In this document: positions 11,127-37,110 of the stretch, one piece after another | Position numbering within the stretch: position 1 is the first letter of the stretch | How the letters are laid out: every line of letters begins with the position of its first letter | IMG/VR virus record: IMGVR_UViG_3300045999_011383 | DNA from: a virus | Length of the DNA: 64,000 nt | Direction: 5' to 3' (one strand) | Notes under the pieces: generated by a model | Told to the model about the DNA's origin: nothing | The model's database searches: none | What the model saw: only the letters and a program-made list of their open reading frames with translations | Translations under genes and position numbers: made by a program

Positions 11127-11257
11127 ATAGAACCTAAAACTATTATTTTCACTAATAGCACACTAATAGAGGAATATGCTATTTTTAAAATTAAAATCCC
11201 TCTAATTGTTGAGAGCAATTAGAGGGATATGTCACCCCGCACAGGAGCTAACTAATT

Positions 11258-11503: not shown

Positions 11504-11614
11504 TCCAAAACCCCTTTAATTGTCAGCAAATGTGGGAAATCCCACATATCTATTGACGCTCTATTAGAGGGGTTTTATAGTAAGTACATACCGGACATGA
11601 CCCGGACATGAGAG

Positions 11615-12552: not shown

Positions 12553-12629
12553 TGGCATTATTAGCCCTTCCTATTGGCTGGTAGCGGCCATATTTGCTCA
12601 ATTGTTCATAGCATCAGGAATAGTAATTT

Positions 12630-13431: not shown

Positions 13432-13910
13432 TATTCAAGAGGAATAGTGAAGCCGACGCTACTCTATTCCGATTCTTTAATAAAGTTGGCTGGGGTGTGC
13501 TTTTGTACAATGCTTACACCCTGTACCCACACTTTTACAACTTATTAAAGAGTGCGGAATATTGGCAAAGAATCTTTGCAAGTGCAGTAACAGTTGCTTT
13601 GATTTTGGGGATTGAATTATCTGTAACCACGGTTTTATTTGACCCCAAAATATTAGTTAAGATTTTAGAAAAACCTAGAGCAGATAAAGAGGTGAAGCAA
13701 ATATTTGATGCAGTGTTTTTTGTTGGTATAACAGCTTTTTTGCTAATAGCAGCCTACACTTTCTGGACTGATTATCAAATCAATTTAAAACAGTTAGGCA
13801 ATCCTTCCTTGATGTTTTTAAAGGTTTTGTGTGGGGTATTTGTTGTTGGTAGTGAATTAGCTTTTGGTTGTGCAAATGTCTTTTATTTAGCAAGCAAAGA
13901 GGAAGACTAA
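13428..13910 (+). CDS. polytopic membrane protein (about 4 TM)
   Basis: Hydrophobic segments WGVLLYNAY.., VTVALILGIELSVTTVLF, AVFFVGITAFLLIAAYTFW and VLCGVFVVGSELAFGCANVFY. Confidence 0.6.
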   Translation: MIFKRNSEADATLFRFFNKVGWGVLLYNAYTLYPHFYNLLKSAEYWQRIFASAVTVALILGIELSVTTVLFDPKILVKILEKPRADKEVKQIFDAVFFVGITAFLLIAAYTFWTDYQINLKQLGNPSLMFLKVLCGVFVVGSELAFGCANVFYLASKEED

Positions 13911-13911
13911 G

Positions 13912-14007
13912 ATGTTAATCCCAGACATCACAGGTATAATTACAATACTATTAATTGCACTGTTCTTAGGCATGATTTTGTACTTGCAATATGACATGAG
14001 AAGGTAA
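13912..14007 (+). CDS. 31-aa single-TM mini-protein
   Basis: MLIPDITGIITILLIALFLGMILYLQYDMRR. It exactly fills the gap between the stop at 13910 and the ATG at 14011. Below the track cutoff. Confidence 0.4.
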   Translation: MLIPDITGIITILLIALFLGMILYLQYDMRR

Positions 14008-14010
14008 GTA

Positions 14011-14298
14011 ATGGATAAAGAATTTTACGGGGGGTTACTATTCTGTGGTTACGCAACCTTTCAGCTTCTAAGCTTTTTGTTAAAAGCATTTCCTGTTACC
14101 ACTGGAGGGGCGATCGCACTAATATTTTTAGGATTATTACTAATAATAATTAGTGGCATTAATAACTGGTTAGGTTTGTACTACAAACATCACGGAATTC
14201 TCAATAAAACACAAAACATAGTAGGTTTTGCACCTATTTACACACTAGGAAGTTTAGCTTTATTTGCAGTCATGGTAGGAATTTATGCAGCATCTTGA
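14011..14298 (+). CDS. membrane protein (3 TM)
   Basis: Almost entirely hydrophobic, 95 aa. Confidence 0.6.
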   Translation: MDKEFYGGLLFCGYATFQLLSFLLKAFPVTTGGAIALIFLGLLLIIISGINNWLGLYYKHHGILNKTQNIVGFAPIYTLGSLALFAVMVGIYAAS

Positions 14299-14794
14299 GA
14301 GAATTTTAAAACGACTAGAAACTTTGGCTTTGGACAACCCTGAACACATTATACTTGATGATTCCTGGTTAGATAATCTATGCGGTAGTTTAGTAGCACA
14401 AAAACAAAACTCAAGTCAAAATCAGTATCCTCAACTAATAGTAACCGGGGAATTTGGCATTGGTAAATCAAGTTTGATTAAGATGATTCAGGAAAGAACT
14501 GGTTTCCACAGAGACGACATTTTGGAAAGACAAAGCCCACTAATTGCAAAAATTGGACTTACCAAAAAACAGCGAGAAAACATCTCTTTTATTGCAATGG
14601 GTACTCGTGTGATGGGGTACTTACTAGGCAGTCTTAATTACTGGAATATTAATCCAGAATTAGGTGTGCTTTTTGAAGAAGTACGGGATTTACTTGACAA
14701 CGAATACATTCCTTGTGCATTGGTAATTCCCACGAATAAAGACCCTTACATAACATTAGCACCTAACCTACCAAAACCTTATGCAGATTCGTGA
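14285..14794 (+). CDS. short P-loop protein, truncated paralog of the 516-aa ATPase
   Basis: Walker A GEFGIGKSS. Shares DDSWLDNLCGS and CALVIPTNKDPYITL blocks with DDFWVDELCESS and YALVIPTRGNPFVAL of ORF 14781..16331. Confidence 0.55.
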   Translation: MQHLERILKRLETLALDNPEHIILDDSWLDNLCGSLVAQKQNSSQNQYPQLIVTGEFGIGKSSLIKMIQERTGFHRDDILERQSPLIAKIGLTKKQRENISFIAMGTRVMGYLLGSLNYWNINPELGVLFEEVRDLLDNEYIPCALVIPTNKDPYITLAPNLPKPYADS

Positions 14795-16331
14795 AACCCC
14801 TTTTACCAAGGATAGAGACAACTTTCTCCCATTAATGATGACAGAACGATTATTAATGGGAACGCTGGCAATTACAGCCATAGCAGGTACTTTTTCCCCT
14901 GTATTATTTTCCCATCAAAATAACTCGGTTAAGTTGGTTCAGCAAATATTTGGATTATTCTCAGGTATTTGTTTTACTGGAGAATCTTATCGCAGGAAGC
15001 AAAAAGAAAAATTCTACAACTCCATAGAACAGGCAAATTTAGCTATTGTCAACAATCAGCTTAAAGGGTCTTTTGCCTTTGAACAGTGTCGAACTCAGAT
15101 TGATTCTAAGCGGGAATTAGCTTCTTATGTCAACTTATTGCCAGAAATAGAACGACCCCGATGGACACAAGAATTTGGGCTACATGGCTTAGTTGAGTTA
15201 CCGCAGATACAGCAAGCAGTCCTTGAACAGCCTAAGCAGTTGCCCGGTTCTCGTAGTATTCCTAACCCAGAGGTTGCCACCATTGACGAACAATCAGTAC
15301 AAGCAATTATCAATCCTAGCGTAAGACAACTACTGCAAGAATTAGCATCTCAGTATCCTGAATATGTGCGGATAGATGATTTCTGGGTTGATGAATTGTG
15401 TGAAAGTTCATCTAGACAAAACATGAGCGATCGCGCCAATCATCACTTTAGTTTTTGGGGAGAAACCCAATCAGGGAAATCAACTTTAGCAGGTGTTTTT
15501 ATCAATAAGATTGCTGCTAATTCACAAAGGCCAGCTTATGTGTTTTGTTCAGATCCCAAGAATTACTTAACAGCTTGGTTGTGTAAATTTAGCCGCAAGT
15601 TTGATGGGTTTAAAACCAATTTAGATCATTGGGTTACTTTTGCCACGAAAGTTATAGATGCACGTCAGGATGAGTTTAAAAACAACCGCAAGGGTGAAGG
15701 ATTAAGTGAAATATTCTTGGTTCAAGACGAGGTTAATGTTGTTTATGGTGAGGGCAAAGGACTACTTGGACAAGTACCAAAAGAAACGGCAATGAACCTT
15801 TGCGCTATGTGGAATTATATTATTAATTTCACCGCAGCCATGAAAATTCACGGCATCTTTATGGGACAAAATCCATTAAGTACCTACACTGGTTTTTCCC
15901 GTCCTGCACTTAAAAATATTTGCTTTTTGGCATTGGGGAAAGTGTCCAATTATGTACTTACTAGAATGCCAGAATTGTTAAATGTCAAAGCAGAAATATC
16001 TGATTTGTTTAGTCAAGTGTGTGAACTCTTAGACAGGGAACAGGTGAGATATGCCCTGGTAATTCCTACTCGTGGTAATCCATTTGTAGCCTTAATTCCG
16101 GTATTTGATATTGATGCAATGGAACAGGTCAACGAACCCCAAGAAACTGCTCCTAAGCAAGACGCAGTTAACTATTACGAAATACTGATTGAATGGATTA
16201 AAGAATTAGAGAGATTCCCCACCAACGATGAACTAAAAGCAGCCTGGAAACACTTGACCGAACAGGAACTAAATGATAACGGGATTGAGTTACTAGCGTC
16301 CAAATTAAAAGAGGAATGGGAAAATGAGTAA
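14781..16331 (+). CDS. membrane-anchored P-loop NTPase (FtsK/TraD/HerA-like, tentative)
   Basis: Two N-terminal TM segments, Walker A FWGETQSGKST and Walker B IFLVQDEVN. Confidence 0.6.
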   Translation: MQIRETPFTKDRDNFLPLMMTERLLMGTLAITAIAGTFSPVLFSHQNNSVKLVQQIFGLFSGICFTGESYRRKQKEKFYNSIEQANLAIVNNQLKGSFAFEQCRTQIDSKRELASYVNLLPEIERPRWTQEFGLHGLVELPQIQQAVLEQPKQLPGSRSIPNPEVATIDEQSVQAIINPSVRQLLQELASQYPEYVRIDDFWVDELCESSSRQNMSDRANHHFSFWGETQSGKSTLAGVFINKIAANSQRPAYVFCSDPKNYLTAWLCKFSRKFDGFKTNLDHWVTFATKVIDARQDEFKNNRKGEGLSEIFLVQDEVNVVYGEGKGLLGQVPKETAMNLCAMWNYIINFTAAMKIHGIFMGQNPLSTYTGFSRPALKNICFLALGKVSNYVLTRMPELLNVKAEISDLFSQVCELLDREQVRYALVIPTRGNPFVALIPVFDIDAMEQVNEPQETAPKQDAVNYYEILIEWIKELERFPTNDELKAAWKHLTEQELNDNGIELLASKLKEEWENE

Positions 16332-16527
16332 GAAGTTAGAGGGCTTTATCTTAGGGTCAGAACAGGGATTAATCCATAAGAATACTGGACTTTATGACAT
16401 TATTTTCACCACCAAAATAAGGGAAGCAAGACTGTTTAATTCAAGACGTGAAGTTGACACTTTTAAAACATTAAGAGGATTAGATTTGATGCCACTAACT
16501 TGTTATCAAATCTGTCAACAAACATAA
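16324..16527 (+). CDS. hypothetical protein (67 aa)
   Basis: Start overlaps the stop of the ATPase gene. Confidence 0.4.
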   Translation: MSKKLEGFILGSEQGLIHKNTGLYDIIFTTKIREARLFNSRREVDTFKTLRGLDLMPLTCYQICQQT

Positions 16528-16687
16528 TGAATACTTTGCTGGCAAAAGAGTATATGAGTAATTGTATACTCTTTTTAAGCATTAAAAATTATCGTTATTT
16601 ATGTTTGATTACCTATGCTAATATATTGTTGTATAATAACAAAAGTTCACTAATTTATTTTTTTAATTTTGGTTTAGAGCGAAGATT

Positions 16688-20268: not shown

Positions 20269-21714
20269 ATGACCGAAAAACCAGGGGAATATACAGCCAA
20301 GTACAAGCCAACTCAATTAATTCAAGGAACTGGACAGACTGCATTGATAACAGGATGGACTATCAAAGAAGCAGTCCAAAAACATTTGAGTAACCATGAA
20401 TATGCAGTTATTGGGCAACTATACTCACCCACAAGAGGGATTAACTTAGTGGTTCGGAATCTGCTATTAAATCCTCATGTTAGGTACTTAGTAATTCTCA
20501 ATGGAACTAAGGAAGACAAAAACGCAGGTGGCTGTCAATGTTTAGCTGACTTTTTTCGTTATGGTTTCAATAAAGGTATTAGTGATATTGGTAGAAAAAC
20601 CTGGGTAATTTCTTCTTCTATTACTGGCTATATTGACATCGAGATTGATATGAATGTTTTAAAAAAATTGCGTGAGTCTGTAGAAATCAAGGAAGTACAA
20701 TCAATAGCCCAAGCTGTTGAAGCGGTCAGAGATTATGCAACTAAAAAACCCGTTGCACCTTGGGGAACACCCTTAGAATTTCCCATGAGTACAATTGAAT
20801 CAAATACCCTACCAGGACCCCTCTATGGTCACAGAATAGAGGGTAAAACCATTGCGGAAACCTGGGTAAAAATCATCCATAGAATTAAAACAACCGGGGT
20901 GATCCGACCCACTAGCCATGATGGAACGTGGCAGGAATTGATAGATTTAATGGCAATTATTACCAATGAGCCTGATGATTTTTACTTTCCTGAACCCAAC
21001 TATTTGCCAGTAGATAGAAGTTTTTTACAAGAATATATTTCTCAGATATTAGAGGACGCGCCTAGTCAAGAAGGGATAAAATACACCTATGGACAAAGGT
21101 TACGTTCCTGGTTTGGTAAAGACCAGGTTCGACAGGTAATTGAAAAGCTAACCCATGACATTAATTCCGCCAGGGCTGTAATGTCTCTGTGGGATATTAA
21201 AGAAGACAACGATGAATCTAATCCCCCCTGTTTAAATCATATTTGGGTAAGGGTAGTCAGCGGTGAACTGTCTTTAACCGCAACCTTTCGTAGTAATGAT
21301 ATGTTCTCAGCATGGCCAGCCAATGCCATGGGTTTAAGGGCTTTACAGAAATATATTTATAGTGCTTTATTGAGTTCCCATCAATCCCTCAAATTAGGTC
21401 CATTGATTACCATTAGTCAGAGCGCTCATATTTATGATGATTGTTTTGAGAATGTCAGCAAGGTAATCTCATCTCAGTATGGTAAGATTGCCAAAAACCA
21501 GGATTACTCTGATCCTGTGGGGAATTTTATTATTAGTAATCAAGAGGGTAAAGTCGTGGTTGAGCATACCACCCCTGGTTCAGGAGAGGTGGTTAATTGT
21601 TATTCAAATAAGTCCGCTTATAAGGTGTCACAAGAAATAATGAGAGATTGTCCAGGGTTGCAAAACTCCCATGCTATGTATTTGGGATGGGAGTTGTGCA
21701 AGTTAAAGTATTAA
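20269..21714 (+). CDS. thymidylate-synthase-family pyrimidine C5 transferase with about 170-aa N-terminal extension
   Basis: Catalytic-Cys motif NPPCLNHIW, then TFRSNDMFSAWPANAMG (the RS.D region) and SQSAHIYDD (the HiY motif). Substrate specificity cannot be read from the sequence. Confidence 0.75.
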   Translation: MTEKPGEYTAKYKPTQLIQGTGQTALITGWTIKEAVQKHLSNHEYAVIGQLYSPTRGINLVVRNLLLNPHVRYLVILNGTKEDKNAGGCQCLADFFRYGFNKGISDIGRKTWVISSSITGYIDIEIDMNVLKKLRESVEIKEVQSIAQAVEAVRDYATKKPVAPWGTPLEFPMSTIESNTLPGPLYGHRIEGKTIAETWVKIIHRIKTTGVIRPTSHDGTWQELIDLMAIITNEPDDFYFPEPNYLPVDRSFLQEYISQILEDAPSQEGIKYTYGQRLRSWFGKDQVRQVIEKLTHDINSARAVMSLWDIKEDNDESNPPCLNHIWVRVVSGELSLTATFRSNDMFSAWPANAMGLRALQKYIYSALLSSHQSLKLGPLITISQSAHIYDDCFENVSKVISSQYGKIAKNQDYSDPVGNFIISNQEGKVVVEHTTPGSGEVVNCYSNKSAYKVSQEIMRDCPGLQNSHAMYLGWELCKLKY

Positions 21715-21829: not shown

Positions 21830-22852
21830 CTAGGAAACCTTGATTTCAGCGATCGCTTCTTCTAAATGTTCCTGAATCACTAATCCCTCTCGCTCTAAAA
21901 TCGCTCGTTTAGCTGCATCTTGGGCAACCCTCACAGCTTGAGCCGCAGAAAAATCTTTCATCTGTTCAATAATTCTTGGCCAGTTGATAGATCCCACTTC
22001 AATTGCAGATAGTGTTTCCCTCAGTATAAATTCTAGTTCTTTTTCTCCCGGTTTGGGTACTGCAATCAGATCATCAAATCTCCTCCATAGGGCAGTATCC
22101 AAAGATTTATTCAAATTCGTAGCGGCTACCATAAGCCCAGAAGAAGGTTGATATTCATCCAAAATTTGCAAAAATGTATTTACTACTCGCTTAATTTCTC
22201 CCACTTCCTGAGAATCTTCTCGTGTCTTAGCAATTGAGTCACATTCATCTAAAAATAATAAACATGGATTTTTTGCAGCATCCTCAAATACCAGTCTTAA
22301 ATTACTGGCTGTCTCCCCTAAAAAAGACGACACCATTGCATCAAAACGTACTTTTAACAGTGGTAAACCTGTATTCCAGGCTAAACGTTCTGCTCCTAAT
22401 GTCTTTCCACACCCAGGCGGTCCATAAAGGAGAATTTTTTGCCGATAACGCAGCCCATGATGAGCTAGTCTATCTCTTGCTGCATACTCGCGCTCAATTC
22501 TTTGAAAACGCTTTTCAATTTTTTCAGGCAATACCATGTAATGACGTAGTTTATCCCTTGGTATGGTCGTTACCAAGGGAAGGTTAAAACGCTTACTGGT
22601 TGGTAATTCGCTTAAACCCTGTAAGTTTTCTCCTGTTGTTTGTGTGGCATTTGCAAGAAAGGAAACAGGTTTGATAGGGTCGGGAGATTGATCTCTGGGT
22701 TTCTTTTTAGCAATATTCTCTAACTGGTCAGCAAGGAGGGTATGCCCTTTACTGCGCTCTTCTTCTATGACCAGATATGCAAGTTTGTCAATCGCTTCTT
22801 GGTCTGAACTAGCGATCGCTCTGAAAAACCTTTTGAGAATCTCTCCCTTCAT
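21830..22852 (-). CDS. classical AAA+ ATPase
   Basis: Walker A LLYGPPGCGKT, Walker B LLFLDECDS, and second region of homology ATNLNKSLDTALWRRFD. Confidence 0.85.
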   Translation of the reverse strand: MKGEILKRFFRAIASSDQEAIDKLAYLVIEEERSKGHTLLADQLENIAKKKPRDQSPDPIKPVSFLANATQTTGENLQGLSELPTSKRFNLPLVTTIPRDKLRHYMVLPEKIEKRFQRIEREYAARDRLAHHGLRYRQKILLYGPPGCGKTLGAERLAWNTGLPLLKVRFDAMVSSFLGETASNLRLVFEDAAKNPCLLFLDECDSIAKTREDSQEVGEIKRVVNTFLQILDEYQPSSGLMVAATNLNKSLDTALWRRFDDLIAVPKPGEKELEFILRETLSAIEVGSINWPRIIEQMKDFSAAQAVRVAQDAAKRAILEREGLVIQEHLEEAIAEIKVS

Positions 22853-22951: not shown

Positions 22952-22965
22952 TTGCAACTGGGCTT
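22952..22965. repeat. inverted partial CRISPR repeat (14-nt perfect anti-repeat)
   Basis: ttgcaactgggctt is the exact reverse complement of repeat positions 23-36 (aagcccagttgcaa). Confidence 0.7.
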
Positions 22966-22968
22966 TGA

Positions 22969-23034
22969 CTTGCAATTAACCCAGTCCCTCAAGGTCGGCT
23001 TCTTGCAATTAACCCAGTTCCCCAAGTCCGGTTT
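22969..23034. repeat. two tandem spacerless degenerate CRISPR-repeat-like 33-mers
   Basis: cttgcaattaacccagtccctcaaggtcggctt followed by cttgcaattaacccagttccccaagtccggttt. Each aligns to the 37-nt repeat at roughly 24 of 33 positions and they abut repeat 1. Confidence 0.6.
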
Positions 23035-24171
23035 GCTTCAACTATCCTCAGTCCCTAAGCCCAGTTGCAAGTGTCAAGGGGTTTATTTTCGAAACCCTTA
23101 TATTTCCTACGTCGTTTCAACTATCCTCAGTCCCTAAGCCCAGTTGCAAGTGAAGGACGTGATTCTAATGCAGCAAAGAACATCTGTTTCAACTATCCTC
23201 AGTCCCTAAGCCCAGTTGCAAGACACATTCTTTATCTTTTAAATATAGCTTATACCATCTGTAGTTTCAACTATCCTCAGTCCCTAAGCCCAGTTGCAAG
23301 AACACCTTACCACCTTTAAGGTAAGACGGCACTTTAGGTTTCAACTATCCTCAGTCCCTAAGCCCAGTTGCAAGACAGAATTGAGAGAACTTTCAAGCCA
23401 TAAGAGAGTAGCGTTTCAACTATCCTCAGTCCCTAAGCCCAGTTGCAAGATTTTCAAAAATTTAAAAATGAATCTGGACATGAAGATGTTTCAACTATCC
23501 TCAGTCCCTAAGCCCAGTTGCAAGAATGCACATTAACAAAAAAAAACCATGAAAAACCGTTTCAACTATCCTCAGTCCCTAAGCCCAGTTGCAAGAAAAC
23601 TTATCAGATACTTAATAAGGCTATAGGTTAGTTTCAACTATCCTCAGTCCCTAAGCCCAGTTGCAAGCTCCCATTTATACAGCTTACTAGCAGCGCAAAT
23701 AGTTTCAACTATCCTCAGTCCCTAAGCCCAGTTGCAAGTCAAAAATCAACAGGAATTGGCCACTACTATTGAAGGATGTTTCAACTATCCTCAGTCCCTA
23801 AGCCCAGTTGCAAGATAAAGCCGTCCGGGGAGGCATGACTAATGAGGATGGTTTCAACTATCCTCAGTCCCTAAGCCCAGTTGCAAGTTGAGACAGTTAA
23901 ACCCAAGGTACTTTAACCTAGTTTCAACTATCCTCAGTCCCTAAGCCCAGTTGCAAGAAAGTATTAAAGAAATGCTCAAACTACCGGCATGTTTCAACTA
24001 TCCTCAGTCCCTAAGCCCAGTTGCAAGTTGCTACATTTACCATACTTATGGAAACTGTCAATGTTTCAACTATCCTCAGTCCCTAAGCCCAGTTGCAAGT
24101 TACTTTGTAAGACGTTATGTAAGACGGCGATGGAGTTTCAACTATCCTCAGTCCCTAAGCCCAGTTGCAAG
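23035..24171. CRISPR. CRISPR array: 16 x 37-nt repeats, 15 spacers (33-42 nt); transcription direction unresolved
   Basis: Repeat is GTTTCAACTATCCTCAGTCCCTAAGCCCAGTTGCAAG. Starts are 23035 (one mismatch, GCTTCAAC), 23114, 23186, 23264, 23338, 23413, 23488, 23559, 23631, 23702, 23778, 23851, 23921, 23991, 24063 and 24135. All spacers are unique. Confidence 0.97.
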
Positions 24172-24514
24172 TCCCGGCTTTCAAAAGCTTTATAAGTCAA
24201 GGGTTTCAAAGGCAATTCTGGCGGACCTGCTAAAAAATCTCATTTCAGCCGCTTAAATCAGCTTGGGTCTTTAAAAGAAACTGAGCGAAACTCTTGCAAT
24301 GTCATGGTTCTGGACTTTTGGCGAATGTCCAGGGTTTTTACCCTAGCTTTGATATGCCAAAAAGATGAGATAGTTGCCAGCCATAGTTCCGGCTGGTCTT
24401 TGGGGGTTGTCGCCTTCCCCCTTACTTTTTAGGGTAAAACCCTTACAAGTCATAAGCTAACATTACATTAGCTACCCGTCCAAACTGCGGTAATTTAATA
24501 TTAACCTAGTCCTA
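24172..24514. ncRNA. ORF-free, hairpin-dense spacer between cas12-like stop and array (candidate tracrRNA/scaffold or leader)
   Basis: Stem-loops at 24312-24330, 24331-24344, 24377-24396, 24402-24421 (GGGGG/CCCCC followed by ttacttttt), 24431-24443 and 24455-24474. Confidence 0.3.
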
Positions 24515-26389
24515 TTACTTTGTCAAGCGTTTTTTCTTAAATCTTTTAGGCTTTTGATAAACCAGCCTAACATTATGGTATTTGACCTCTCCCAATTCAA
24601 AACCACCATTCTGTTTATGATTTCTAGCAGCATTGGTATCAGCTTGTTGGGCAACGTCAAATAATTTACAGTCAGGGTTTTTACAGACAAATTCATACTG
24701 CGATCGCCTTTCCCCTTTCTGTCCGCAACAATGGCATATTTGAGAGCTATAATTAGCAGGTGGTTCATGGAAGTTGCCACCTCTATTTTCTATTTTTTGC
24801 TTGGTTTTAGCTTTCAAGTCACCTAAACATCTTTGTCTCATAATCCAGTTTAAACCACGTTTAGCAGATGCACCATTGTGAGCATATCCCACACCCTCTG
24901 GTAATGCTTTTGGATCTACTTGTTTAAGTAAGTTGGTAACTTGTGTATCCTCCCAAGATATATGTTCATAAGTGCGAGATAATCTTGTGGATAACTTGTG
25001 ATTAAAGGCATTAGAGGAATTAGCCCCGCGTTCGTGTAGACGGCTGATTTTTTGTTGTAACTTAGATTCATTCTTTGTCTTGATTCTAGAGGTCTTGTTG
25101 CCTAAGCTTTTCCATTTTTTATCATTAATTAATTCAGCGTTGTCTAGACGTGATTGTAATTCCTCAATGTGAATTGAGATCCGCTCCCTAGTAAGGTTAG
25201 GAAGGAATAAAGCCCCATGATCTGTAGACACTACAGCCTGTACCCCAGGGTCAATACCCGCACTCAGATTTTTACCTTTTAAAACTGATGACTGCTTAAT
25301 TTGTTGCTCAATGAATTTCAGTTTTGACTTGATATCTTGGTACTCTTCACTGTCTTCACCAAACTCTTTTTTTACCTTGGGTAACTTATTTGTTAGTACA
25401 GACTTTTCCTCTTGCAATGGGTGAGCAACTACAATATTAATGTAGTATCCTGACTGCTGTTTGGTAATCATGTATGTCCGTGGCAAAACCTGAGAAAGAT
25501 TCAATCTTTTTACCCAGTTTTTGTCAGCAATAGTGATGGGAGTAAGTCCGGTGACAGTAACTATGTTTTTGTCAATGTCAATCCTGTTAGGCGCACATTG
25601 ATTATTAGATAAAGTTGCAATCTTGTCTACATCTTTTTTGAATTTTGGCTTTCTACTGTTTATCCTTTTAGGATCTAAAAATGCCTTCCAAGATTCCTTA
25701 AAAAATGCTAACAGCCCGCCAATATAGTGGGAAGAAACCTGCAAGTCTGGTAAATTTTGGAATGCTCTTAAAGTATTTAATCCAGTCACGTTGTCAAGTT
25801 TTTCCAAAGTAGTCAGTTCCCTACCCTCATACTTTCCACTAGGGAATGTGCGGTATTTGTGAGGGACTATTTCTATCCGTTGCCAGGGCTTATCGCCTTT
25901 AACTAATTTGTACCCCTTGACGTAAATAACGCCTTTTTTGGTATTAACTGGAATATTGATATTTTCATCTCTCTTCCAATAATTCCCGCCTGTGGCTATT
26001 TGACAGGATAATCCTTCATAAGCACTATTTCCAAGCCTTAATGGCACAGGAATAATGCCTTCCAAGCTAAATGGACTCCATCTGGTAAATATCTCAAATT
26101 CTTTCTTGCTAACTAATTCCTGTTCTTTTTTAGACAGCTTAGGCTTATCCTTGGTGGAATAGTAATCTTTAACTAATTGTTGTTGCTCAGGTTTAAGTTT
26201 TTCCAGTTTTTCAGTAGCCTTGGTTAAATCTGCACTGCGTTTAGCAGCCCAAGCATACCAATCTACGCAGTGATTGTGTAGTTGGTTGGAAAGTGCTAAA
26301 TTCCACAGCCATGTTAATTCATCTAAGTAGCGATCGCACACAGCCGCCTGTTCTGATGAGAGTTTGATTTTAATCTTAATTGTCTTCAT
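24515..26389 (-). CDS. cas12: TnpB-like type V CRISPR effector (Cas12 family), RuvC residues intact
   Basis: 624 aa. TnpB-like N-terminus IKIKLSSEQAAVCDRYLDELTWLWNLALSN. RuvC-I GIDPGVQAVVSTDHG, RuvC-II HISWEDTQVTNL, zinc finger CHCCG..x13..CKNPDC, RuvC-III QADTNAARN. Adjacent to the array. Confidence 0.85.
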   Translation of the reverse strand: MKTIKIKIKLSSEQAAVCDRYLDELTWLWNLALSNQLHNHCVDWYAWAAKRSADLTKATEKLEKLKPEQQQLVKDYYSTKDKPKLSKKEQELVSKKEFEIFTRWSPFSLEGIIPVPLRLGNSAYEGLSCQIATGGNYWKRDENINIPVNTKKGVIYVKGYKLVKGDKPWQRIEIVPHKYRTFPSGKYEGRELTTLEKLDNVTGLNTLRAFQNLPDLQVSSHYIGGLLAFFKESWKAFLDPKRINSRKPKFKKDVDKIATLSNNQCAPNRIDIDKNIVTVTGLTPITIADKNWVKRLNLSQVLPRTYMITKQQSGYYINIVVAHPLQEEKSVLTNKLPKVKKEFGEDSEEYQDIKSKLKFIEQQIKQSSVLKGKNLSAGIDPGVQAVVSTDHGALFLPNLTRERISIHIEELQSRLDNAELINDKKWKSLGNKTSRIKTKNESKLQQKISRLHERGANSSNAFNHKLSTRLSRTYEHISWEDTQVTNLLKQVDPKALPEGVGYAHNGASAKRGLNWIMRQRCLGDLKAKTKQKIENRGGNFHEPPANYSSQICHCCGQKGERRSQYEFVCKNPDCKLFDVAQQADTNAARNHKQNGGFELGEVKYHNVRLVYQKPKRFKKKRLTK

Positions 26390-27189: not shown

Positions 27190-27441
27190 TTAAATTAACT
27201 CCAGCAAAATTGTTAATGCGGACTGGATACTGTTAATAGCATCTTTGATTAATGCCCGCTTTTGGGTTGCGGGTTTGTTTGGACTAGAAACTAATAACTC
27301 ATCATTAGCTATTAGTTTCATGAATTTGGAAATGTTGGGGTCTTCACCCCACAGGCAGCCAAACTCCAAAGCTTTATTCTCTAGCTTGGCTTTGTCTTCC
27401 ATTGAGATAGAGAGCGTGATGCTCTCTTGTTTTCTACTCAT
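27190..27441 (-). CDS. ribbon-helix-helix (CopG/Arc-like) small regulator
   Basis: ESITLSISMEDKAKLENKALEFG has a beta-strand-then-helix pattern. Start overlaps the upstream ORF stop (ATGA). Confidence 0.5.
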   Translation of the reverse strand: MSRKQESITLSISMEDKAKLENKALEFGCLWGEDPNISKFMKLIANDELLVSSPNKPATQKRALIKDAINSIQSALTILLELI

Positions 27442-27947
27442 AGAGAAATATTCCCTTTATTTTCAATCCACCATTTTGCGGACGTGGGAATTTTCTTATT
27501 GTTTTTTAGTGCGATCGCAACATCATCTATTGCTCTAACTGCTATAGATTTAGCCCATTTAATCTGCTTTTCAGAGCCTTCAAACTTTAGCGACTCTACA
27601 TAATTAAGAGCATCTTCTCTGTTGCTTTCTGAGACTGGATCTTCTTCCTCGATCTCATAATCGCACGGAATACTATCTAAATTCTTTAAAACAGCACTGA
27701 AAATTATTTCATTTATAGGTACAGAAGAGAGAATAAAACTCTCTTCTCTGATTACCTCTAGAACTAAATCTTCAGCAATAGATTGATAGGTTTCACCTGG
27801 CTCTAACTGGAACTCAGAATTGCTCACTAAATATTCCACTACCTTTCTAACGGCTTTCTGGCATTCTGGATTTCTAAAATCCACACGAATCATTTGAAGC
27901 CCAGAAGTGTCAAATTTATTTAAAAGCCTTCTTTGTTTGATAGCCAT
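27438..27947 (-). CDS. hypothetical acidic protein (169 aa)
   Basis: Co-transcribed with the RHH gene. No motif recognised. Confidence 0.5.
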   Translation of the reverse strand: MAIKQRRLLNKFDTSGLQMIRVDFRNPECQKAVRKVVEYLVSNSEFQLEPGETYQSIAEDLVLEVIREESFILSSVPINEIIFSAVLKNLDSIPCDYEIEEEDPVSESNREDALNYVESLKFEGSEKQIKWAKSIAVRAIDDVAIALKNNKKIPTSAKWWIENKGNISL

Positions 27948-28108
27948 GATACAATACCTTTAAACGATGTTTTACTTAGAGGCTTGGGCTTGCTCCCCTT
28001 GCCTCTATATTTATATCATTACACAATATTTTATCCTTGTCAATAGCAAAGTGTCCGTATTTTAAATATTTTGTACTGAACTTTTGAAGTTGTAAATTGT
28101 ACAACATA

Positions 28109-28207
28109 AAAAGAAGTAAACGACGTAACCGACATCAACTAAAACAGCAACTAAGAAAATTAGATGCGATCGCACTTAAACAAATCCATAGCAGCTTGGG
28201 GGGATAA
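28109..28207 (+). pseudogene. N-terminal fragment homologous to ORF 39453..39776
   Basis: Translates as KRSKRRNRHQLKQQLRKLDAIALKQIHSSLGG*, compared with KRQARRHRHLLKKQLRELDAIAKKQINNNYNL.. in the 107-aa protein. It has no ATG and lacks the Cys-rich remainder. Confidence 0.4.
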
Positions 28208-28413
28208 ACCCGACATATCTAAGCTTTTAAGTAGATAGCCCAACGGGAAATACTGCTTTCTTGTTCTGATAAACCCACCAAAAAACAAAGTCCTTTAATT
28301 AAAGAAGCGATCGCGCTTATTCAAAAAGGATTGTCAATTTTAATAGAATTAATTTAGTTTTTAAAGCGCTCTTGACAGGGCGTTTTTTGTTGTTTAAAAA
28401 CTTAATTTAATTG

Positions 28414-28443
28414 TTGATTAATTGTTAATCAATGTGTTATACT
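28414..28443 (+). promoter_or_regulatory. candidate promoter of the csf operon (TTGATT-18-TGtTATACT, extended -10)
   Basis: ttgattaattgttaatcaatgtgttatact, 38 nt upstream of the GTG at 28481. Confidence 0.4.
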
Positions 28444-28480
28444 AAATCAAGATTAAATTACTTTAGTTTGGGAAAGTAAA

Positions 28481-28999
28481 GTGACAACCAATCATTACGG
28501 AATGCCACAGACACGAGACAAGTGTTATGGCGTGGCTGCTTGTTTAAGTTATTGGGTTTTTAAATGCCGTGACAGGAAACGTAGTCCAGCCATGGGAACT
28601 AAAACCTGGACATATTTGGAATCTTCTATCAAGAATTGTGCAGAAATATCCACAAATTTAGAAGATTATCTACAAAATCTTTGTGATAAATTGATATCGC
28701 AATTAAGACCTGTAGAGCTAACCAAAATTATTCAACCAACTCAGAGAATACTGAGAATTAATGAAGATGCAACTGAAATCAAGGAACTACCAATAGATCG
28801 AAGTTTGGTTTTTATGGGGTGGCTTGACTTGCTTGCCGATATTGAACCCCACGGATTTAGTGAGTGGGACGTAATGGAATTGTTAAGAACAAAAACAGGA
28901 GTTATTCAAGTAATTTGTCGTCTGCGATTTGAAGAAGATAGAAGTGTGGGGCTTGATGAACCAGAAGAATTTATTGAGGTAGAGGTGACAAATGTTTGA
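28481..28999 (+). CDS. first gene of csf operon; possible Cas11-like small subunit (assignment by position and size only)
   Basis: 172 aa, GTG start. Its stop overlaps the csf2 ATG. No diagnostic motif. Confidence 0.4.
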   Translation: MTTNHYGMPQTRDKCYGVAACLSYWVFKCRDRKRSPAMGTKTWTYLESSIKNCAEISTNLEDYLQNLCDKLISQLRPVELTKIIQPTQRILRINEDATEIKELPIDRSLVFMGWLDLLADIEPHGFSEWDVMELLRTKTGVIQVICRLRFEEDRSVGLDEPEEFIEVEVTNV

Positions 29000-30125
29000 T
29001 AATTATAATATTTTTGACAGAGAGAAATTAACCCTGCATTGCTTAATCACGCTACAGACACCATTGAGCCATATAGGCGAAGTGTCTGGCAATGTTAGCA
29101 ATCTGAAAACTACTAAGTTATTGGACTTTGAAGGTAATCCTAGAAGTGTTTTTGTCTATTCTGGTAATGCAATCAGAAACGGTATTTTGCGCCGGGTAGG
29201 AGTGGCAGCAGCACTCACGGAATTAGGAATTAAGGTAAATCCAGATACTCACCATACAATGTTTGCTGGCGGGCGAATTGATGGGGGGACAGCTTCGGAT
29301 ATGGAACTGGATAAAAAGATCCGGGTCTTTATGCCTTGGCTATCAGTATTGGGAACAGCCAAACCCATAGGTGTTTTTGGGACTAAAGAAGCCCAGATGG
29401 TAGCTGGTAGAAGTAATATTGGCAGTGGTTATTTAGTCTGCTATGAGTCAGCAGAATACGTTTACAACCAACTCCCAGCAGTTTTACCACCGGAAATACA
29501 GCCAACTATGGCCTTATTAATTGAAGCTAAAACCAGACTTTCTTCCGACCCTTTTGTATCCACAAAATCAGAAGACTTAACTAACTGGAATCAAGCAAAA
29601 TCAGAATGTTTGCCACTGATCAAAAAAGCAATGAAAACATGGACTGAATACTTAACAATTGATCAGACAACTCGCAGAGATAGCACTTTAGATCCCAACT
29701 TACTCAAATTTCTACCATCAGAAGTACAAGCACAATTAACAGGTGATGGTAAAACTAAAGAAAAAACTAAATCAGATCAGATGATTGCGTCTGACAGGCT
29801 GATCATGCCCGGTGCTAAACTTTATTCTCGATGGGATCTAACTTGTACTCAAATAGAAGAGGGATGGATATTTGATACTTTACTCAAGTTTTCAGAATCA
29901 CCTTATATTGGTGGTAAAGGCAATCGTGGCAATGGCAGGGTTCATCTTGATTTCTGGTTTCAGTCTGACCATGAACGGGGGTTATTGTGTTCTCTGAAAG
30001 ATGGAATTATGGGAGATAGGTTTCTTAATTCCCATCAAAAATATCGGGAATATATCAATCAGTATCAGCAGTTTTTAAGTGAAGCAAAAACATCCAAGGA
30101 ATTAAGGAAGTTGTTAGGTGAATAA
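28992..30125 (+). CDS. csf2: Csf2-like Cas7-family RAMP (type IV backbone subunit)
   Basis: LITLQTPLSHIGEVSG....VFVYSGNAIRNGILRR is the RAMP N-terminal motif. Also MFAGGRIDGG and WLSVLGTA, with C-terminal G-rich loop YIGGKGNRGNGRVHLDF. Confidence 0.75.
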   Translation: MFDNYNIFDREKLTLHCLITLQTPLSHIGEVSGNVSNLKTTKLLDFEGNPRSVFVYSGNAIRNGILRRVGVAAALTELGIKVNPDTHHTMFAGGRIDGGTASDMELDKKIRVFMPWLSVLGTAKPIGVFGTKEAQMVAGRSNIGSGYLVCYESAEYVYNQLPAVLPPEIQPTMALLIEAKTRLSSDPFVSTKSEDLTNWNQAKSECLPLIKKAMKTWTEYLTIDQTTRRDSTLDPNLLKFLPSEVQAQLTGDGKTKEKTKSDQMIASDRLIMPGAKLYSRWDLTCTQIEEGWIFDTLLKFSESPYIGGKGNRGNGRVHLDFWFQSDHERGLLCSLKDGIMGDRFLNSHQKYREYINQYQQFLSEAKTSKELRKLLGE

Positions 30126-30804
30126 TTTAAAAGTCACTGCATATTTGTCTACACCGATTGGTGTCTATGACAATTGGAGTCCTTCTTTGGAGGGACTTCT
30201 TACCTATAGATTACTAGAAGAAAATAATCTATTGTCTCCCAATCCCACCGCAGAGCAAGTAGCAAAGGTTCAGAATTTTTTAGTAAATGAATTACCGCTT
30301 AAACAGAATACAATAATGAATGATAAGTATTTCTGTGTAAGTTCACCTTGCTATGTGGTTCAAGGTGAGGCTACTGATAAATATCGGAAAAGATGGGACA
30401 ATCACGAAAATAATCTGAACTGGGGAAAAAGAAAGCCTAAATTCTTGACGGGTGAAGGTGCAGAAAAGTCCTATGATTTACCGCTATACACTCGTTTAAC
30501 AAATAGTATTAGTTGGTTTGTAACAGGCGACAGAACCAAGATTGACGCTCTATTGTCACCTGTTACCCATATTCAGAAAAAACGAAGTTATGGCAATGGT
30601 GAAGTTAAGCAATGGCAACTAGAAATAGTTTATGACGACTATCATTTGTGGCGAGATAATAAACTAATGCGTCCTATGCCCGTGAAGTTAATATCACAAA
30701 AAATAGATAATCCTCAAATGATTTGGGGATGGAAAAGCCCGTCTTGGTTAGCAGAAAATAAAGAACTTTGTTATATGCCAAAGGACAATGTGATTTATGC
30801 TTAG
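30118..30804 (+). CDS. csf3: Csf3-like Cas5-family RAMP
   Basis: KVTAYLSTPIGVYDNWSPSLEGLLTY at the N-terminus and G-rich loop KKRSYGNGEVKQW. GTG start overlaps the csf2 stop. Confidence 0.6.
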   Translation: MNNLKVTAYLSTPIGVYDNWSPSLEGLLTYRLLEENNLLSPNPTAEQVAKVQNFLVNELPLKQNTIMNDKYFCVSSPCYVVQGEATDKYRKRWDNHENNLNWGKRKPKFLTGEGAEKSYDLPLYTRLTNSISWFVTGDRTKIDALLSPVTHIQKKRSYGNGEVKQWQLEIVYDDYHLWRDNKLMRPMPVKLISQKIDNPQMIWGWKSPSWLAENKELCYMPKDNVIYA

Positions 30805-31543
30805 TAATGGCTCTGGGGTTCAATACCCTTGGTTGAAAAAGAAAATTACTAAAGCTATTAATTTCATTAATCAGTGGCTAGAACAATGCAACTATCAGGT
30901 TTATGCAAGTATTTCCGGTGGTAAAGATAGCTTAGTAATGTCTCATTTGATCAGGAAAGTTTACCCTGATTGCCCGTTAGTTTGGGTAAATCAAGGGCTG
31001 TTAGCAGAATGGGATGATTGTATTGAATTATTGGAATACTTGAAAACTCAAAACTGGAACATTATTGAGCTTTGTCCAGTTCGTGATTTATGGCATTTAT
31101 ACATAGATCACGGAGTTCCGTTAGAGGGTACGATGGATACAAAAGTAGATAAATTAATCAACCAAAAATTGATTTATGATCCATTGCAAGAATACCAAGA
31201 AATCAACAATATCAAAGGGTACGCATGGGGAATAAGGAAGCAAGAAAGCAAAAACAGAGCATTTTATCTTAACAAGTACGGTGAAGTTCATGAACTAAAA
31301 AATGGGTTAATTTGTTGCTCGCCTATTGCTCACTGGACTACAGAAGAAATATGGCAGTACATAGATATGTACTCACTCAAATACCCAGCAATTTATGACA
31401 TTAACAAAATGACAGTCAGGAATGGTTGCCCGATTGGAACTACAGGAGCAAACTGGGGTAGATTAGCTGAATTAAAAAGATATTACCCCAATATTTACAA
31501 CCAATTTGTTGATAAATTCCCACAAATATCGAACTATGTCTAA
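30797..31543 (+). CDS. cysH: PAPS-reductase / CysH-like PP-loop enzyme
   Basis: PP-loop ASISGGKDSLVM, then WGIRKQESKNR and PIAHWTTEEIWQYI. Embedded inside the csf operon with overlapping junctions. Confidence 0.85.
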   Translation: MLSNGSGVQYPWLKKKITKAINFINQWLEQCNYQVYASISGGKDSLVMSHLIRKVYPDCPLVWVNQGLLAEWDDCIELLEYLKTQNWNIIELCPVRDLWHLYIDHGVPLEGTMDTKVDKLINQKLIYDPLQEYQEINNIKGYAWGIRKQESKNRAFYLNKYGEVHELKNGLICCSPIAHWTTEEIWQYIDMYSLKYPAIYDINKMTVRNGCPIGTTGANWGRLAELKRYYPNIYNQFVDKFPQISNYV

Positions 31544-32294
31544 TTGCTACCTTTGCGCTAAACCAGCATCAAATCCACTAGAATTATCCAATACTTTCAC
31601 CATGCACTCATCGGCTAAGTGTCCAGACTCTAAGCTGCTGTGCGATCGCTGCTATTCTACAATTTCTGGTAATCAAAAGCAGTTATGGTATTGGAATGAA
31701 GGTAAAAATAAGTGGTCAAAACTGTGGGGACGATCTTTGTCCAGGGTGTACCAAGGCGATACTTTAATAGCACCAATAATTAAAGGCACTCACACTGAAG
31801 GCAAAGATACTTTCAGTGTGGTTAGAAACTTATTGACGCGGGTAGAAATCAGGGAATATTTATTAAATCCTCCTGAGCCACCGTTCACTATCGCTATAGC
31901 AGAATCAGGACAAAAACACATTATCCCATGGGCATTAGAAGCGCGTAGCTGTAACTTTTTTCCAATTCAATTTGAGTTAGACACGGTTTATATTGACAAC
32001 AGATTCAAGGAATCTTTGCAAGTATATGAACAACTAATGGGATTAGGGTTTAGTAAGTCTGAAATTGATTCAGGAAACTACAGAAGCGATAGATTGATGA
32101 AAGTGTTTGATAAATTTTGGGAACTTGAGGAATCCATAAAAGCCATTAGAGGGACTAGATTAATGGAATTAATAAATTACGTCGCTCAACTACAATCAAG
32201 TGCCGTCGTGGCGGAAATAAAGCCAATTCCTGTAATTCCTGTTTCTCCCACGAGTCCAGACAAATCAAATCCAGTTCAGTTATCGTTGTTTTAG
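31536..32294 (+). CDS. csf1: Csf1-like zinc-finger large-subunit protein
   Basis: Tracked ORF trimmed to the ATG at 31536 (ATGTCTAA overlap with the cysH-like stop). N-terminal CYLC..x21..C..x6..CDRC cysteine cluster; about 250 aa. Confidence 0.55.
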   Translation: MSNCYLCAKPASNPLELSNTFTMHSSAKCPDSKLLCDRCYSTISGNQKQLWYWNEGKNKWSKLWGRSLSRVYQGDTLIAPIIKGTHTEGKDTFSVVRNLLTRVEIREYLLNPPEPPFTIAIAESGQKHIIPWALEARSCNFFPIQFELDTVYIDNRFKESLQVYEQLMGLGFSKSEIDSGNYRSDRLMKVFDKFWELEESIKAIRGTRLMELINYVAQLQSSAVVAEIKPIPVIPVSPTSPDKSNPVQLSLF

Positions 32295-32310
32295 CAAAAA
32301 CCCTTATAAT

Positions 32311-32402
32311 TCCGATCCGTTAAAAATAACGCTGGAGTCTTTAAAATCAACGCTGGAGTCAGCAAAGATAACGCTGGAGTCCTTAAAATTAACATTGGAG
32401 TC
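32311..32402. repeat. iteron cluster: 4 x AACGCTGGAGTC-type 12-mers at exact 21-bp spacing
   Basis: Cores at 32328, 32349, 32370 and 32391 (the last reads aacattggagtc). The 29-nt lead-in tccgatccgttaaaaataacgctggagtc matches 50459-50487 at 27 of 29 positions. Confidence 0.75.
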
Positions 32403-32558
32403 GTTAATTTTAAGGTTTCATCTATATTATTAAACAATCTTAATTAACAATCTTAATTAAGAGTCTCTAGTTTAAGTACAAATAAAAATGCTCACCAAGG
32501 TGCATGGTGAGCATAATATGTTGAAACCTACTCAATGCAAGTATAGCAAATTTAACCC

Positions 32559-33548
32559 TTAAATTGCATTTTTAATAGCCTGACAAATTCGTTGCATAAG
32601 CAATGGGGGAATGGAATTTCCAATTCCCCTAACATCAACCGCAGACTTACCCGACCATTTATAAGAATCAGGAAAAGATTGTATTCGTGCTAACGCATGG
32701 GTGCTTAAACTCTTGCAAGTATCACCACAGACAATATCAATTATTTTAGAGCGATTGCCATTGTGTCCATCGTCACCTAACACTGCACGAATAGTCCAAC
32801 ATGGTTCTAATGGTGTTTTGACCTTGGGTTTGCCACGGTATCCAATTCGTTCTACTAGTACCATTGAGTCGCCATAGGGTGCTACAGCGTCCTTCTGTCG
32901 GGGTGTTATCTGTGATTCAGTGAAGTGGGGAATCAGATCACAAATCGCTTCATGCCACCCAATCCAGTTTTTCCTAAATAGATTAATTTGCCCATTAATT
33001 GCTTTTCCATACTCAGGAATAATGCAAGGAAAGTCAAACCCATCAGATACGGCAATACTTAAAAACCGTTTTCGGGATTGAGGTACACCGTAATCAGCAG
33101 CATTGTAAATACCTTTGCCAATCCGATATCCTTTGTCTATTAAAAATGCTTCAAAGTCCAGATAAACCTTTGATTTAGAATAACCGGGGACGTTTTCTAA
33201 AACTATAAATTCAGGTTCATATAAGCTGTAAAATTCATGGGTTGCACTCAATATATTAGCACGAACGCTATCTTTATTGGTAGCCACATTAACCACTGAA
33301 AAGTCTTGACAAGGTGGTGAAGTTTGGTGAACTAAAATATCGCCATTCCGGTCTTTTTTGGTGGGAATATTTAAATTCCTGAAGTTAACTTTGGCAATAT
33401 CTTCTATTAATACATCCCCACAATTAGTTTGATAAAGTTCTGCTATTCTAGGATCAAACTCAATAGCAGATATTGGTTTTAATAAAGCAGACATTGCACC
33501 TATAGTTGAGCCACCGCATCCTGAAAAATGAGTAGAGTAATAAATCAT
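32559..33548 (-). CDS. dcm: DNA cytosine-5 methyltransferase
   Basis: Motif I FSGCGG, IV SPPCQDFS, VI LENVPG, VIII QSRKRF and X GNSIPP, in canonical order. Confidence 0.9.
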   Translation of the reverse strand: MIYYSTHFSGCGGSTIGAMSALLKPISAIEFDPRIAELYQTNCGDVLIEDIAKVNFRNLNIPTKKDRNGDILVHQTSPPCQDFSVVNVATNKDSVRANILSATHEFYSLYEPEFIVLENVPGYSKSKVYLDFEAFLIDKGYRIGKGIYNAADYGVPQSRKRFLSIAVSDGFDFPCIIPEYGKAINGQINLFRKNWIGWHEAICDLIPHFTESQITPRQKDAVAPYGDSMVLVERIGYRGKPKVKTPLEPCWTIRAVLGDDGHNGNRSKIIDIVCGDTCKSLSTHALARIQSFPDSYKWSGKSAVDVRGIGNSIPPLLMQRICQAIKNAI

Positions 33549-36255: not shown

Positions 36256-37110
36256 ATGATTAATCAAGTAATTCATGGTGATTGTTTTGAAGTTTTGAAA
36301 ACTATTCCTGATGGTTCTATTGACGCTGTAATCACAGATCCGCCTTACATGACAACTGATTTAAACTTTGATAAAACAGGCTTTGATGTTGACTTATTCT
36401 TAAAATTATTATTACCAAAACTTAAAAGTGATGGACAATTAGCTGCATTTGGGAGTATTGAATTACTTGCTAAGTTTAGCGGTATTTATCCTATTAGATG
36501 GTCAGGAATGTGGTTAAAACCGAGAGGAGTGATGAGAACTCATACAGCCAAGAAACCTATGAGCAAAAGCGAACCTTACTGTATATTTGCTCACCCAAAA
36601 CATAAAGTATCAAACCTTGTTTATAACAAAATATTATTGCCAGGAGAGCCTTATGAAAAAAAACAAAAAAATACTGGCTATATTAGAGACGGCAAAAATC
36701 AAATAGATAGAGCAAATACTTCTGCATGGACTAAGGACGGGTATATCTCAAAAAACCTGGGTACAAGACAACAAACAGATGTTATTGAATCTCCGTTCAA
36801 AGGCTGCATGAAACATCATGAACGAACCATTCACCCCACACAAAAGCCTGTAGCACTGATATCTACATTGGTTCAGTGGATAACCAACCCCGGCGATACA
36901 GTCCTTGACCCTTTTGCTGGTAGTGGTACAACAGCACTAGCCTGTAAAGAACTCAACAGAAACTATATCTGCATTGAGAAGGAACGGGAATATATTGACA
37001 TTATTCATCAACGCCTAAACACACCCATAGCTGAAAGGGGATTAACTGTAGAGGAACAGGTAGAGATTGAGAAAACTAAGTCACCTTATCAACAGTTGTC
37101 ATTGTTTTAG
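36256..37110 (+). CDS. DNA N6-adenine/N4-cytosine methyltransferase (DPPY, beta class)
   Basis: Motif IV AVITDPPYMTT at the N-terminus and motif I LDPFAGSGTT near the C-terminus. Confidence 0.85.
   Translation: MINQVIHGDCFEVLKTIPDGSIDAVITDPPYMTTDLNFDKTGFDVDLFLKLLLPKLKSDGQLAAFGSIELLAKFSGIYPIRWSGMWLKPRGVMRTHTAKKPMSKSEPYCIFAHPKHKVSNLVYNKILLPGEPYEKKQKNTGYIRDGKNQIDRANTSAWTKDGYISKNLGTRQQTDVIESPFKGCMKHHERTIHPTQKPVALISTLVQWITNPGDTVLDPFAGSGTTALACKELNRNYICIEKEREYIDIIHQRLNTPIAERGLTVEEQVEIEKTKSPYQQLSLF

Follow-up and report, generated by a model that had tools for sequence, protein, structure and literature searches.

The window analyzed here, a 64,000-nt stretch of DNA (IMG/VR record IMGVR_UViG_3300045999_011383), carries on its minus strand an ATG-start open reading frame (ORF) of 624 amino acids at positions 24515..26389. 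Together with the neighboring clustered regularly interspaced short palindromic repeat (CRISPR) array, this gene very probably forms a phage-borne type V-P CRISPR-Cas locus orthologous to Cas12p (“Cas12 hacker”), and it is referred to below as cas12p. Judged from its sequence, the protein is a real small CRISPR nuclease that is apparently active, and the locus looks functional. It does not represent a new subtype; reports from 2025 already cover the family together with its guide RNA, structure, and thioredoxin cofactor.

The effector and its assignment to type V-P

A first-pass annotation made from the letters of the window had taken this ORF for a type V effector candidate in which the RuvC domain and zinc finger are intact. 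All of the motifs it quoted are present: GIDPGVQAVVSTDHG begins at residue 378 and holds Asp380, HISWEDTQVTNL begins at residue 476 and holds Glu480, CHCCG and CKNPDC lie at residues 552 and 569 within the zinc finger, and QADTNAARN at residue 582 holds Asp584. The triad D380/E480/D584 and the four zinc-finger cysteines (C552, C555, C569, and C574) were invariant in all 47 homologues collected (39 to 80% identical to the query), in agreement with that description. Tyr45 was likewise invariant, and W44, W47, C129, I131, and D199 were kept in at least 90% of the 47. The Pfam profile Cas12f1-like_TNB was matched above its cut-off (37.1 versus 26.3 bits). The domains assigned to the protein are WED/REC, a thioredoxin-binding (TB) domain with Cys129, a protospacer-adjacent motif (PAM)-interacting (PI) domain, RuvC, and the zinc finger. 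An identical protein was otherwise found only on contigs of 2.4 to 2.7 kb, which are too short for context.

A sequence search of the PDB aligned query residues 1 to 615 with 9jfs_A/9jg3, “Cas12p” (1268 bits). Compared with residues 129 to 741 of 9JFS, 541 of 615 positions (88%) were identical, and the additional 128 N-terminal residues of that chain lay outside the alignment. Entries 9JFS and 9JG3 are structures of Cas12 hacker (Cas12p), type V-P (Wang et al., bioRxiv 10.1101/2025.01.20.633832). In a profile search of PDB sequences, Cas12p scored 954 bits and the second match 51 bits, and Cas12k was absent at an E value of ≤0.01. An AlphaFold2 model was built on the 47 homologues (predicted local distance difference test score, 87.9), and Foldseek placed 9jg3_A at the top with this model (template modeling [TM] scores, 0.86/0.92; E value, 3.6e−86; root mean square deviation, 2.9). 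The next match was TnpB (TM score, 0.40); the runners-up as a group were TnpB (8iaz and 8h1j), LaTranC, and Cas12f, with query-normalized TM scores of ∼0.35 to 0.40, and Cas12k was found at rank 38 (TM scores, 0.25/0.32). The first-pass annotation had suggested comparing a model with Cas12f, Cas12k, and TnpB; 9jg3_A is matched far better than any of these. Its view that the effector could not be assigned to a named subtype fails because the protein is a close orthologue, 88% identical over its full length, of a described and structurally solved family, and it falls inside that existing subtype with the same architecture of gene, trans-activating CRISPR RNA (tracrRNA), and array.

Residues probed by mutation in the preprint were located in the window protein. 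The published RuvC residues D378/E478/D582 correspond to D380/E480/D584, the shift of 2 being due to a 2-amino-acid insertion near residue 96. The TB pocket was defined by mutation of W44, Y45, W47, L51, W102, F105, L107, I110, I111, V113, L115, C127, I129, and I172, and the PAM contacts by mutation of D197, N261, Q262, and K332 (bioRxiv 10.1101/2025.01.20.633832). When these 18 residues and the RuvC triad were considered together, 19 of 21 were identical in the window protein. At the thioredoxin interface 13 of 14 residues were identical, with L51R as the sole change and C127 of the preprint corresponding to C129 here, while the PAM-contacting D197, N261, and Q262 are conserved as D199, N263, and Q264. 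The observation that the protein exceeds TnpB in size through an N-terminal insertion also stands; homology to the solved structure makes this insertion, earlier described as lysine rich, the REC helices and the TB domain, the second half of which is basic according to the preprint. The same source reports that the 88%-identical protein works experimentally with a CRISPR RNA (crRNA) and a tracrRNA, that nuclease activity needs bound host thioredoxin, and that double-stranded DNA next to a GTN PAM is cleaved with staggered cuts (bioRxiv 10.1101/2025.01.20.633832). A CxxC-motif scan of ORFs of at least 70 amino acids identified no thioredoxin-like ORF in the window.

Guide RNA components and conservation of the locus

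A tracrRNA of ∼118 to 133 nt was predicted at 24359..24491 on the minus strand from sequence, covariation, and the published single guide RNA layout. Its scaffold begins 24 nt past the cas12p stop codon with ACCGCAGUUUGGACGG at position 24491 (minus strand), the single occurrence of this motif in the window. Stem 1 carries a GUUU loop (24485-24482) that is able to form a pseudoknot with the AAAC at the 3′ end of the repeat, and it is followed by four further stems, an anti-repeat, and a U-run (24363-24359). The anti-repeat, CAACUAUCU (24376-24368), is the complement of positions −5 to −13 of the repeat. In the published 118-nt tracrRNA, the GUUU at positions 7 to 10 engages the terminal AAAC of the repeat in a pseudoknot, a pairing kept family-wide (bioRxiv 10.1101/2025.01.20.633832); the register at the window locus is identical. 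The 5′ end given here was placed from the published register and the promoter, and the 3′ end is approximate. The putative promoter, a σ70-like site at 24498..24526 on the minus strand, consists of TTGACA (24526-24521), a 17-nt spacer, and TAATAT (24503-24498), with 10 of 12 hexamer positions matching the consensus in a consensus scan, and it overlaps the cas12p stop codon. A −10-like element is equally spaced in an alignment of orthologous loci and in the chromosomal Sphaerospermopsis locus described below, and the site is likely to act as the tracrRNA promoter.

Support for the tracrRNA comes from covariation and not from single-sequence folding, which was not significant (z, −1.5). Seven distinct orthologous tracrRNA sequences gave a five-stem consensus in which 10 of 31 predicted pairs showed compensatory changes. 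The anti-repeat also co-varies with each locus's own repeat across 12 related loci: CAACUAUC accompanies repeats ending in GAUAGUUG-AAAC, CAAUCCU accompanies those ending in GGGAUUG-AAAC, and CAGUCCU those ending in GGGACUG-AAAC. No Rfam family was matched in the window at gathering thresholds, and therefore the tracrRNA is not a curated family. The first-pass annotation had argued for a tracrRNA-dependent effector and had not located the RNA; the predicted tracrRNA lies directly downstream of the gene.

The CRISPR array (23035..24171, minus strand) starts 343 nt past the 3′ end of cas12p and consists of 16 repeats, each of 37 nt, separated by 15 spacers of 33 to 42 nt. The repeat is GTTTCAACTATCCTCAGTCCCTAAGCCCAGTTGCAAG, or CTTGCAACTGGGCTTAGGGACTGAGGATAGTTGAAAC when read on the minus strand, and its tail occurs 16 times where 0.5 occurrences would be expected by chance. 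As described earlier, the repeat has only a 5-bp CAACT/AGTTG stem over a 19-nt loop. The leader-distal repeat (23035-23071) is mutated to end in GAAGC. Transcription of the array on the minus strand, like that of the gene, is indicated by this mutated terminal repeat, by the anti-repeat's strand, and by the 3′ AAAC, which is conserved. A leader with blocks conserved across related loci extends from the tracrRNA to the first repeat (24172..24358, minus strand), and the 343 nt between stop codon and array are conserved in relatives.

The related loci compared were from eleven IMG/VR viral contigs (43 to 95 kb) and a Cuspidothrix metagenome-assembled genome, labeled L001 to L012, whose homologues share 71 to 88% identity with the window protein. 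Every locus long enough to show it (L001 to L004, L006 to L012, and the chromosome of Sphaerospermopsis kisseleviana) has cas12p, tracrRNA, leader, and array in that order, with arrays beginning ∼285 to 390 nt past the stop codon on the same strand. Repeats end in GAAAC in L001 to L012 and in UAAAC in S. kisseleviana. Isolate phages gave no match to the locus in nucleotide BLAST; its relatives are confined to viral contigs from metagenomes.

Annotated homologues exist in assemblies of Anabaena, Sphaerospermopsis, and Cuspidothrix. A 63%-identical homologue is encoded in the 5.35-Mb S. kisseleviana chromosome (GenBank accession number AP018314.1; GCA_002368075.1). Within the region fetched (L033, AP018314.1 845833-867713), the gene lies at 10001-11881 and the array at 12230-13734, with the same promoter and tracrRNA and an array of 21 repeats, between infC/ilvN-type and zwf/opcA/tal genes. 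The Cas12p family is thus not exclusively viral, and the system could be studied in this sequenced genome. The NCBI label of the S. kisseleviana protein is only “zinc ribbon domain-containing protein.”

Two other arrangements were seen among the relatives. In L004 (885-1033 and 1-700) and L006 (6234-6564 and 5786-6218), cas12p is preceded, several kilobases upstream and in the opposite orientation, by another tracrRNA-like segment plus leader and array, for which no second effector gene was seen. In Cylindrospermopsis phage Cr-LKS4 (L013; GenBank accession number OQ625504.1), a 45%-identical homologue (6001-8007) has no CRISPR array, and the tracrRNA-like 5′ motif ACCGCAGTTCGGGCGG occurs in three stand-alone copies (5009, 5371, and 12096). 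The copies at 5009 and 5371, the two with flanks read, each lie behind a TTGACA/TATAAT promoter. These stand-alone scaffolds may be natural single guide RNAs.

A mechanism can be proposed for the window locus, the first two steps of which are strongly supported. The tracrRNA would be transcribed from its own promoter overlapping the 3′ end of cas12p and would then pair with the pre-crRNA of the adjoining array through the 9-nt anti-repeat and the 4-bp GUUU:AAAC pseudoknot. By homology with the experiments on the 88%-identical protein, the Cas12p-tracrRNA-crRNA complex would bind host thioredoxin through the hydrophobic pocket and Cys129 of the TB domain, recognize PAM-flanked double-stranded DNA, and cut it with RuvC (D380/E480/D584). 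In a cyanophage of Nostocales, the likely use would be attack on competing phages or other mobile elements. The natural targets, the processing of crRNAs, and the source of new spacers are points that we infer.

Spacer targets and comparison with known systems

Two spacers were traced to effector genes of related phages. Spacer 14 of the window array (23185-23151) matches the RuvC-III-coding part of a type V-U2-type effector gene in L001 (33 of 35 positions; 15324-15358) and in Aphanizomenon phage vB_AphaS-CL131 (31 of 34 positions; MG209611.1 63137-63170), the protospacer being flanked on its 5′ side by GCA or TCA. Spacer 2 of the array in L004 (5287-5471) matches cas12p itself, at 36 of 36 positions in L006 (11025-11060) and at 35 of 36 in the copy of its own contig (4128-4163), with TTG as the flank. 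Phage spacers can therefore match type V effector genes of relatives, and these matches fit a role in conflict between related phages. Spacers 1, 5, and 6 returned nothing in exact-match IMG/VR scans, nor did spacers 1 and 5 in exact-match scans of metagenome contigs. BLAST of the whole array against isolate phages gave spacer 14 to CL131 and otherwise low-complexity noise, and the 119 pooled spacers of all related arrays gave the same result. Spacers of the S. kisseleviana array matched neither the window nor any fetched locus.

The window locus shares with the characterized Cas12p the fold, the RuvC triad, the zinc finger, the TB pocket and its cysteine at 88% identity, a tracrRNA with the GUUU:AAAC pseudoknot, an adjoining array, a viral genomic context, and a minimal locus with no adaptation genes among the neighboring ORFs scanned. 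It differs in 12% of the protein sequence, in the 2-amino-acid insertion near residue 96, and in ∼9 extra C-terminal residues. Several observations count against the reading as a type V-P locus. Two of the residues probed in the preprint differ from the characterized protein, L51R and K332N (the K334 position here), although K332A had only a slight effect (bioRxiv 10.1101/2025.01.20.633832). The published GTN PAM was not recovered; only three independent protospacers were found in the family, and their 5′ flanks are GCA/TCA, TTG, and GTG. A consensus scan of the leader (24172-24358) found no consensus promoter for the array on the minus strand, and no adaptation genes (Cas1, Cas2, or Cas4) were found among the ORFs scanned, all of which lie within ∼10 kb of cas12p. 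Finally, thioredoxin dependence and cleavage would carry over by analogy from a preprint that used a heterologous Escherichia coli system.

The best generic profile matches are to type V-U2 (C2c8), a subtype already reported in phage CL131, and the paper describing CL131 places that phage's array-adjacent TnpB-like gene in V-U2. Like the window protein, V-U2 effectors such as gp061 of CL131 are small, derive from TnpB, and adjoin a CRISPR array in this group of phages. The best NCBIfam match, V_cas_c2c8 (NF038192; E value, 4e−55), is made in two stretches, the best-scoring one covering residues 364 to 559, and the best PADLOC match is Cas12u2 (E value, 3e−56). However, the NCBIfam score of 187.6 bits falls well under the cut-off of 350, and the window protein is 29% identical both to CL131 gp061 and to the 587-amino-acid homologue in L001, which are themselves 79% identical to each other. 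V-U2 proteins are 466 to 587 amino acids long, and L001 carries the V-U2-type gene and cas12p separately, each with its own array and with different repeats. The low identity and the presence of both genes on L001 indicate that V-P and V-U2 are distinct families able to co-reside, so that a V-U2 identity for the window protein is very unlikely. The window itself has V-P only, plus two spacerless units that are probably remnants of a second repeat type.

An IS200/IS605- or IS607-type TnpB working with an omega-RNA, next to an array that lies there by chance or serves neighboring type IV-B genes, could account for homologues annotated as “transposase” or “IS605 OrfB.” TnpB and TranC, the next-best structural matches (TM scores of 0.36 to 0.40 by query length and up to 0.63 by target length), share the RuvC and zinc-finger core and an RNA scaffold at the 3′ end of the gene, and the scaffold starting 24 nt past the cas12p stop codon resembles omega-RNA. 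The array-less homologue of phage Cr-LKS4 would also fit. In the NCBIfam search, however, the scores were below the respective cut-offs for guided_TnpB (91.4 versus 100 bits), IS200_TnpB (36.9 versus 425), and IS607_TnpB (36.3 versus 350). None of the four flanking ORFs scanned within 3 kb (21830-22852, 27190-27441, 27438-27947, and 28481-28999) matched tnpA or transposase families, Y1 and serine recombinases included; insertion sequence ends were not searched for explicitly. The order of gene, tracrRNA, and array is kept in 12 loci with an anti-repeat that tracks its own repeat, the 88%-identical protein is experimentally guided by crRNA and tracrRNA, and unlike TnpB the window protein has a large REC and TB insertion and would be guided by a CRISPR array with the help of a separate tracrRNA. 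A TnpB identity is accordingly judged extremely unlikely. The reading as a transposon's guide module that, like Cas12k, does not cut is effectively refuted. Similar size, a cyanobacterial setting, tracrRNA dependence, and V-K-like repeat ends speak for it, as do the common GTN PAM and similar PI domain reported in the preprint (bioRxiv 10.1101/2025.01.20.633832). Cas12k, however, has an inactive RuvC and resides inside a Tn7-like element, whereas the RuvC triad of the window protein is intact and invariant and the subset of ORFs scanned from 12.0 to 39.4 kb gave no match to a Tn7-type family. The first-pass annotation had rejected Cas12k on these same two grounds, correctly so; the likeness in size and repeat ends that it had remarked upon is superficial, given the low structural rank and the missing profile match. 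Overall, the conserved architecture and the lack of a transposase or Tn7 match among the ORFs scanned rule out an insertion sequence-borne gene or a CRISPR-associated transposon, and type V-P remains the preferred assignment.

As a type V effector, the window protein adds little to what has been described, and its value is modest and lies in natural history. The preprint left the hosts of Cas12 hacker open and speculated on a role in phage-phage conflict (bioRxiv 10.1101/2025.01.20.633832). Through the window, a close Cas12p orthologue can be linked to bloom-forming Nostocales (the group of Aphanizomenon, Sphaerospermopsis, and Cuspidothrix) by way of their CL131-like phages, in which V-P is found combined with V-U2 and type IV-B modules. 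The host link, the chromosomal copy, the mix of modules, and the anti-effector spacers make a native role in phage-phage conflict experimentally approachable.

Phage context and the neighboring type IV-B module

The window derives from a Nostocales cyanophage resembling CL131. It encodes a DnaB with 74% identity to the DnaB of Aphanizomenon phage vB_AphaS-CL131, the next phage match being 37%, and several flanking blocks share 90 to 95% nucleotide identity with IMG/VR contigs. A virion structural protein, KilA-N proteins, a DnaD-like loader, and phage-only families are encoded, and no tRNA or rRNA genes were found in the window. The annotated homologues in the cyanobacterial assemblies named above, together with the copy on the S. 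kisseleviana chromosome, point to Nostocales as the host group. Four genes for DNA methyltransferases, orphan methylases among them, were identified (5237-6571, 32559-33548, 36256-37110, and 43649-44314): one ParB-fused and of the N6/N4 type, one of the C5 type, another of the N6/N4 type, and a fourth. The phage may use them against restriction.

At a distance of 2 kb from cas12p, the plus strand carries a complete type IV-B set (28481-32294). PADLOC identified type IV Cas11 (28481-28999), Csf2 (Cas7; 28992-30125), Csf3 (Cas5; 30118-30804), a CysH-like 3′-phosphoadenosine 5′-phosphosulfate reductase (30797-31543), and Csf1 (Cas8; 31506-32294), with weaker NCBIfam and Pfam matches across the module. 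No DinG or Cas6 match was obtained among the ORFs scanned at 27190-33548. Thirteen IMG/VR phage contigs have the five genes in this order, usually 1 to 11 kb from cas12p in two different arrangements and sometimes without it. In three contigs (L018 to L020), cas12p shares the strand of csf1 and lies 0.9 to 2.4 kb downstream of it, whereas in the window it is on the other side and divergent; in two others (L021 and L028), neither cas12p nor an array was present within 10 kb of the module. A Csf2 homologue was found in no INPHARED isolate phage.

Type IV-B systems are normally without arrays, and their RNA partner is not known; a type IV-B neighbor is not mentioned in the preprint (bioRxiv 10.1101/2025.01.20.633832). 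A functional link between the module and the array of cas12p is possible but unsupported. This array might also supply crRNAs to the Csf complex and would then not serve Cas12p alone, but we consider this improbable. If true, it would be the first natural guide source for a type IV-B system, and the phage would possess a two-effector immunity of “borrowed parts” against rival phages, including their type V effector genes. The repeat ending GUUGAAAC/CUGAAAC appears to resemble the tag typical of class 1 systems. An origin of the phage repeats by copying from host class 1 repeats was considered and is not claimed, because the paper describing CL131 found little similarity between CL131 repeats and host repeats.

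At the trailer end of the array, two spacerless, degenerate 33-nt units (22969..23034, no strand assigned) are related to the second-array repeat of L001. Together with an inverted partial repeat they make up the trailer (22952-23034), and on this likeness the two units are probably the remnant of a second array. In L001, the 33-nt unit forms a second array of 28 repeats (12928-14950) that abuts the gene for the 587-amino-acid V-U2-type protein (14899-16662), and the ORF terminates within the last repeat of that array.

Adjoining the array of the window, an IetA/IteA-like AAA+ ATPase is encoded at 21830-22852 on the minus strand (PADLOC IetA; E value, 2.5e−79), with no IetS-like partner among the scanned neighbors. 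The ORF at 20269-21714 (plus strand) encodes a 481-amino-acid fusion of an MtrA-like N-terminal part, a thymidylate-synthase domain, and a C-terminal pterin-binding DUF4346. Two 21-nt tandem repeats with a common AACG(C/T)TGGAGTC core were identified at 50471-50534 and 32320-32407, one of them inside the gene for the DnaD-like loader, just upstream of dnaB. They resemble iterons and could indicate an origin of replication.

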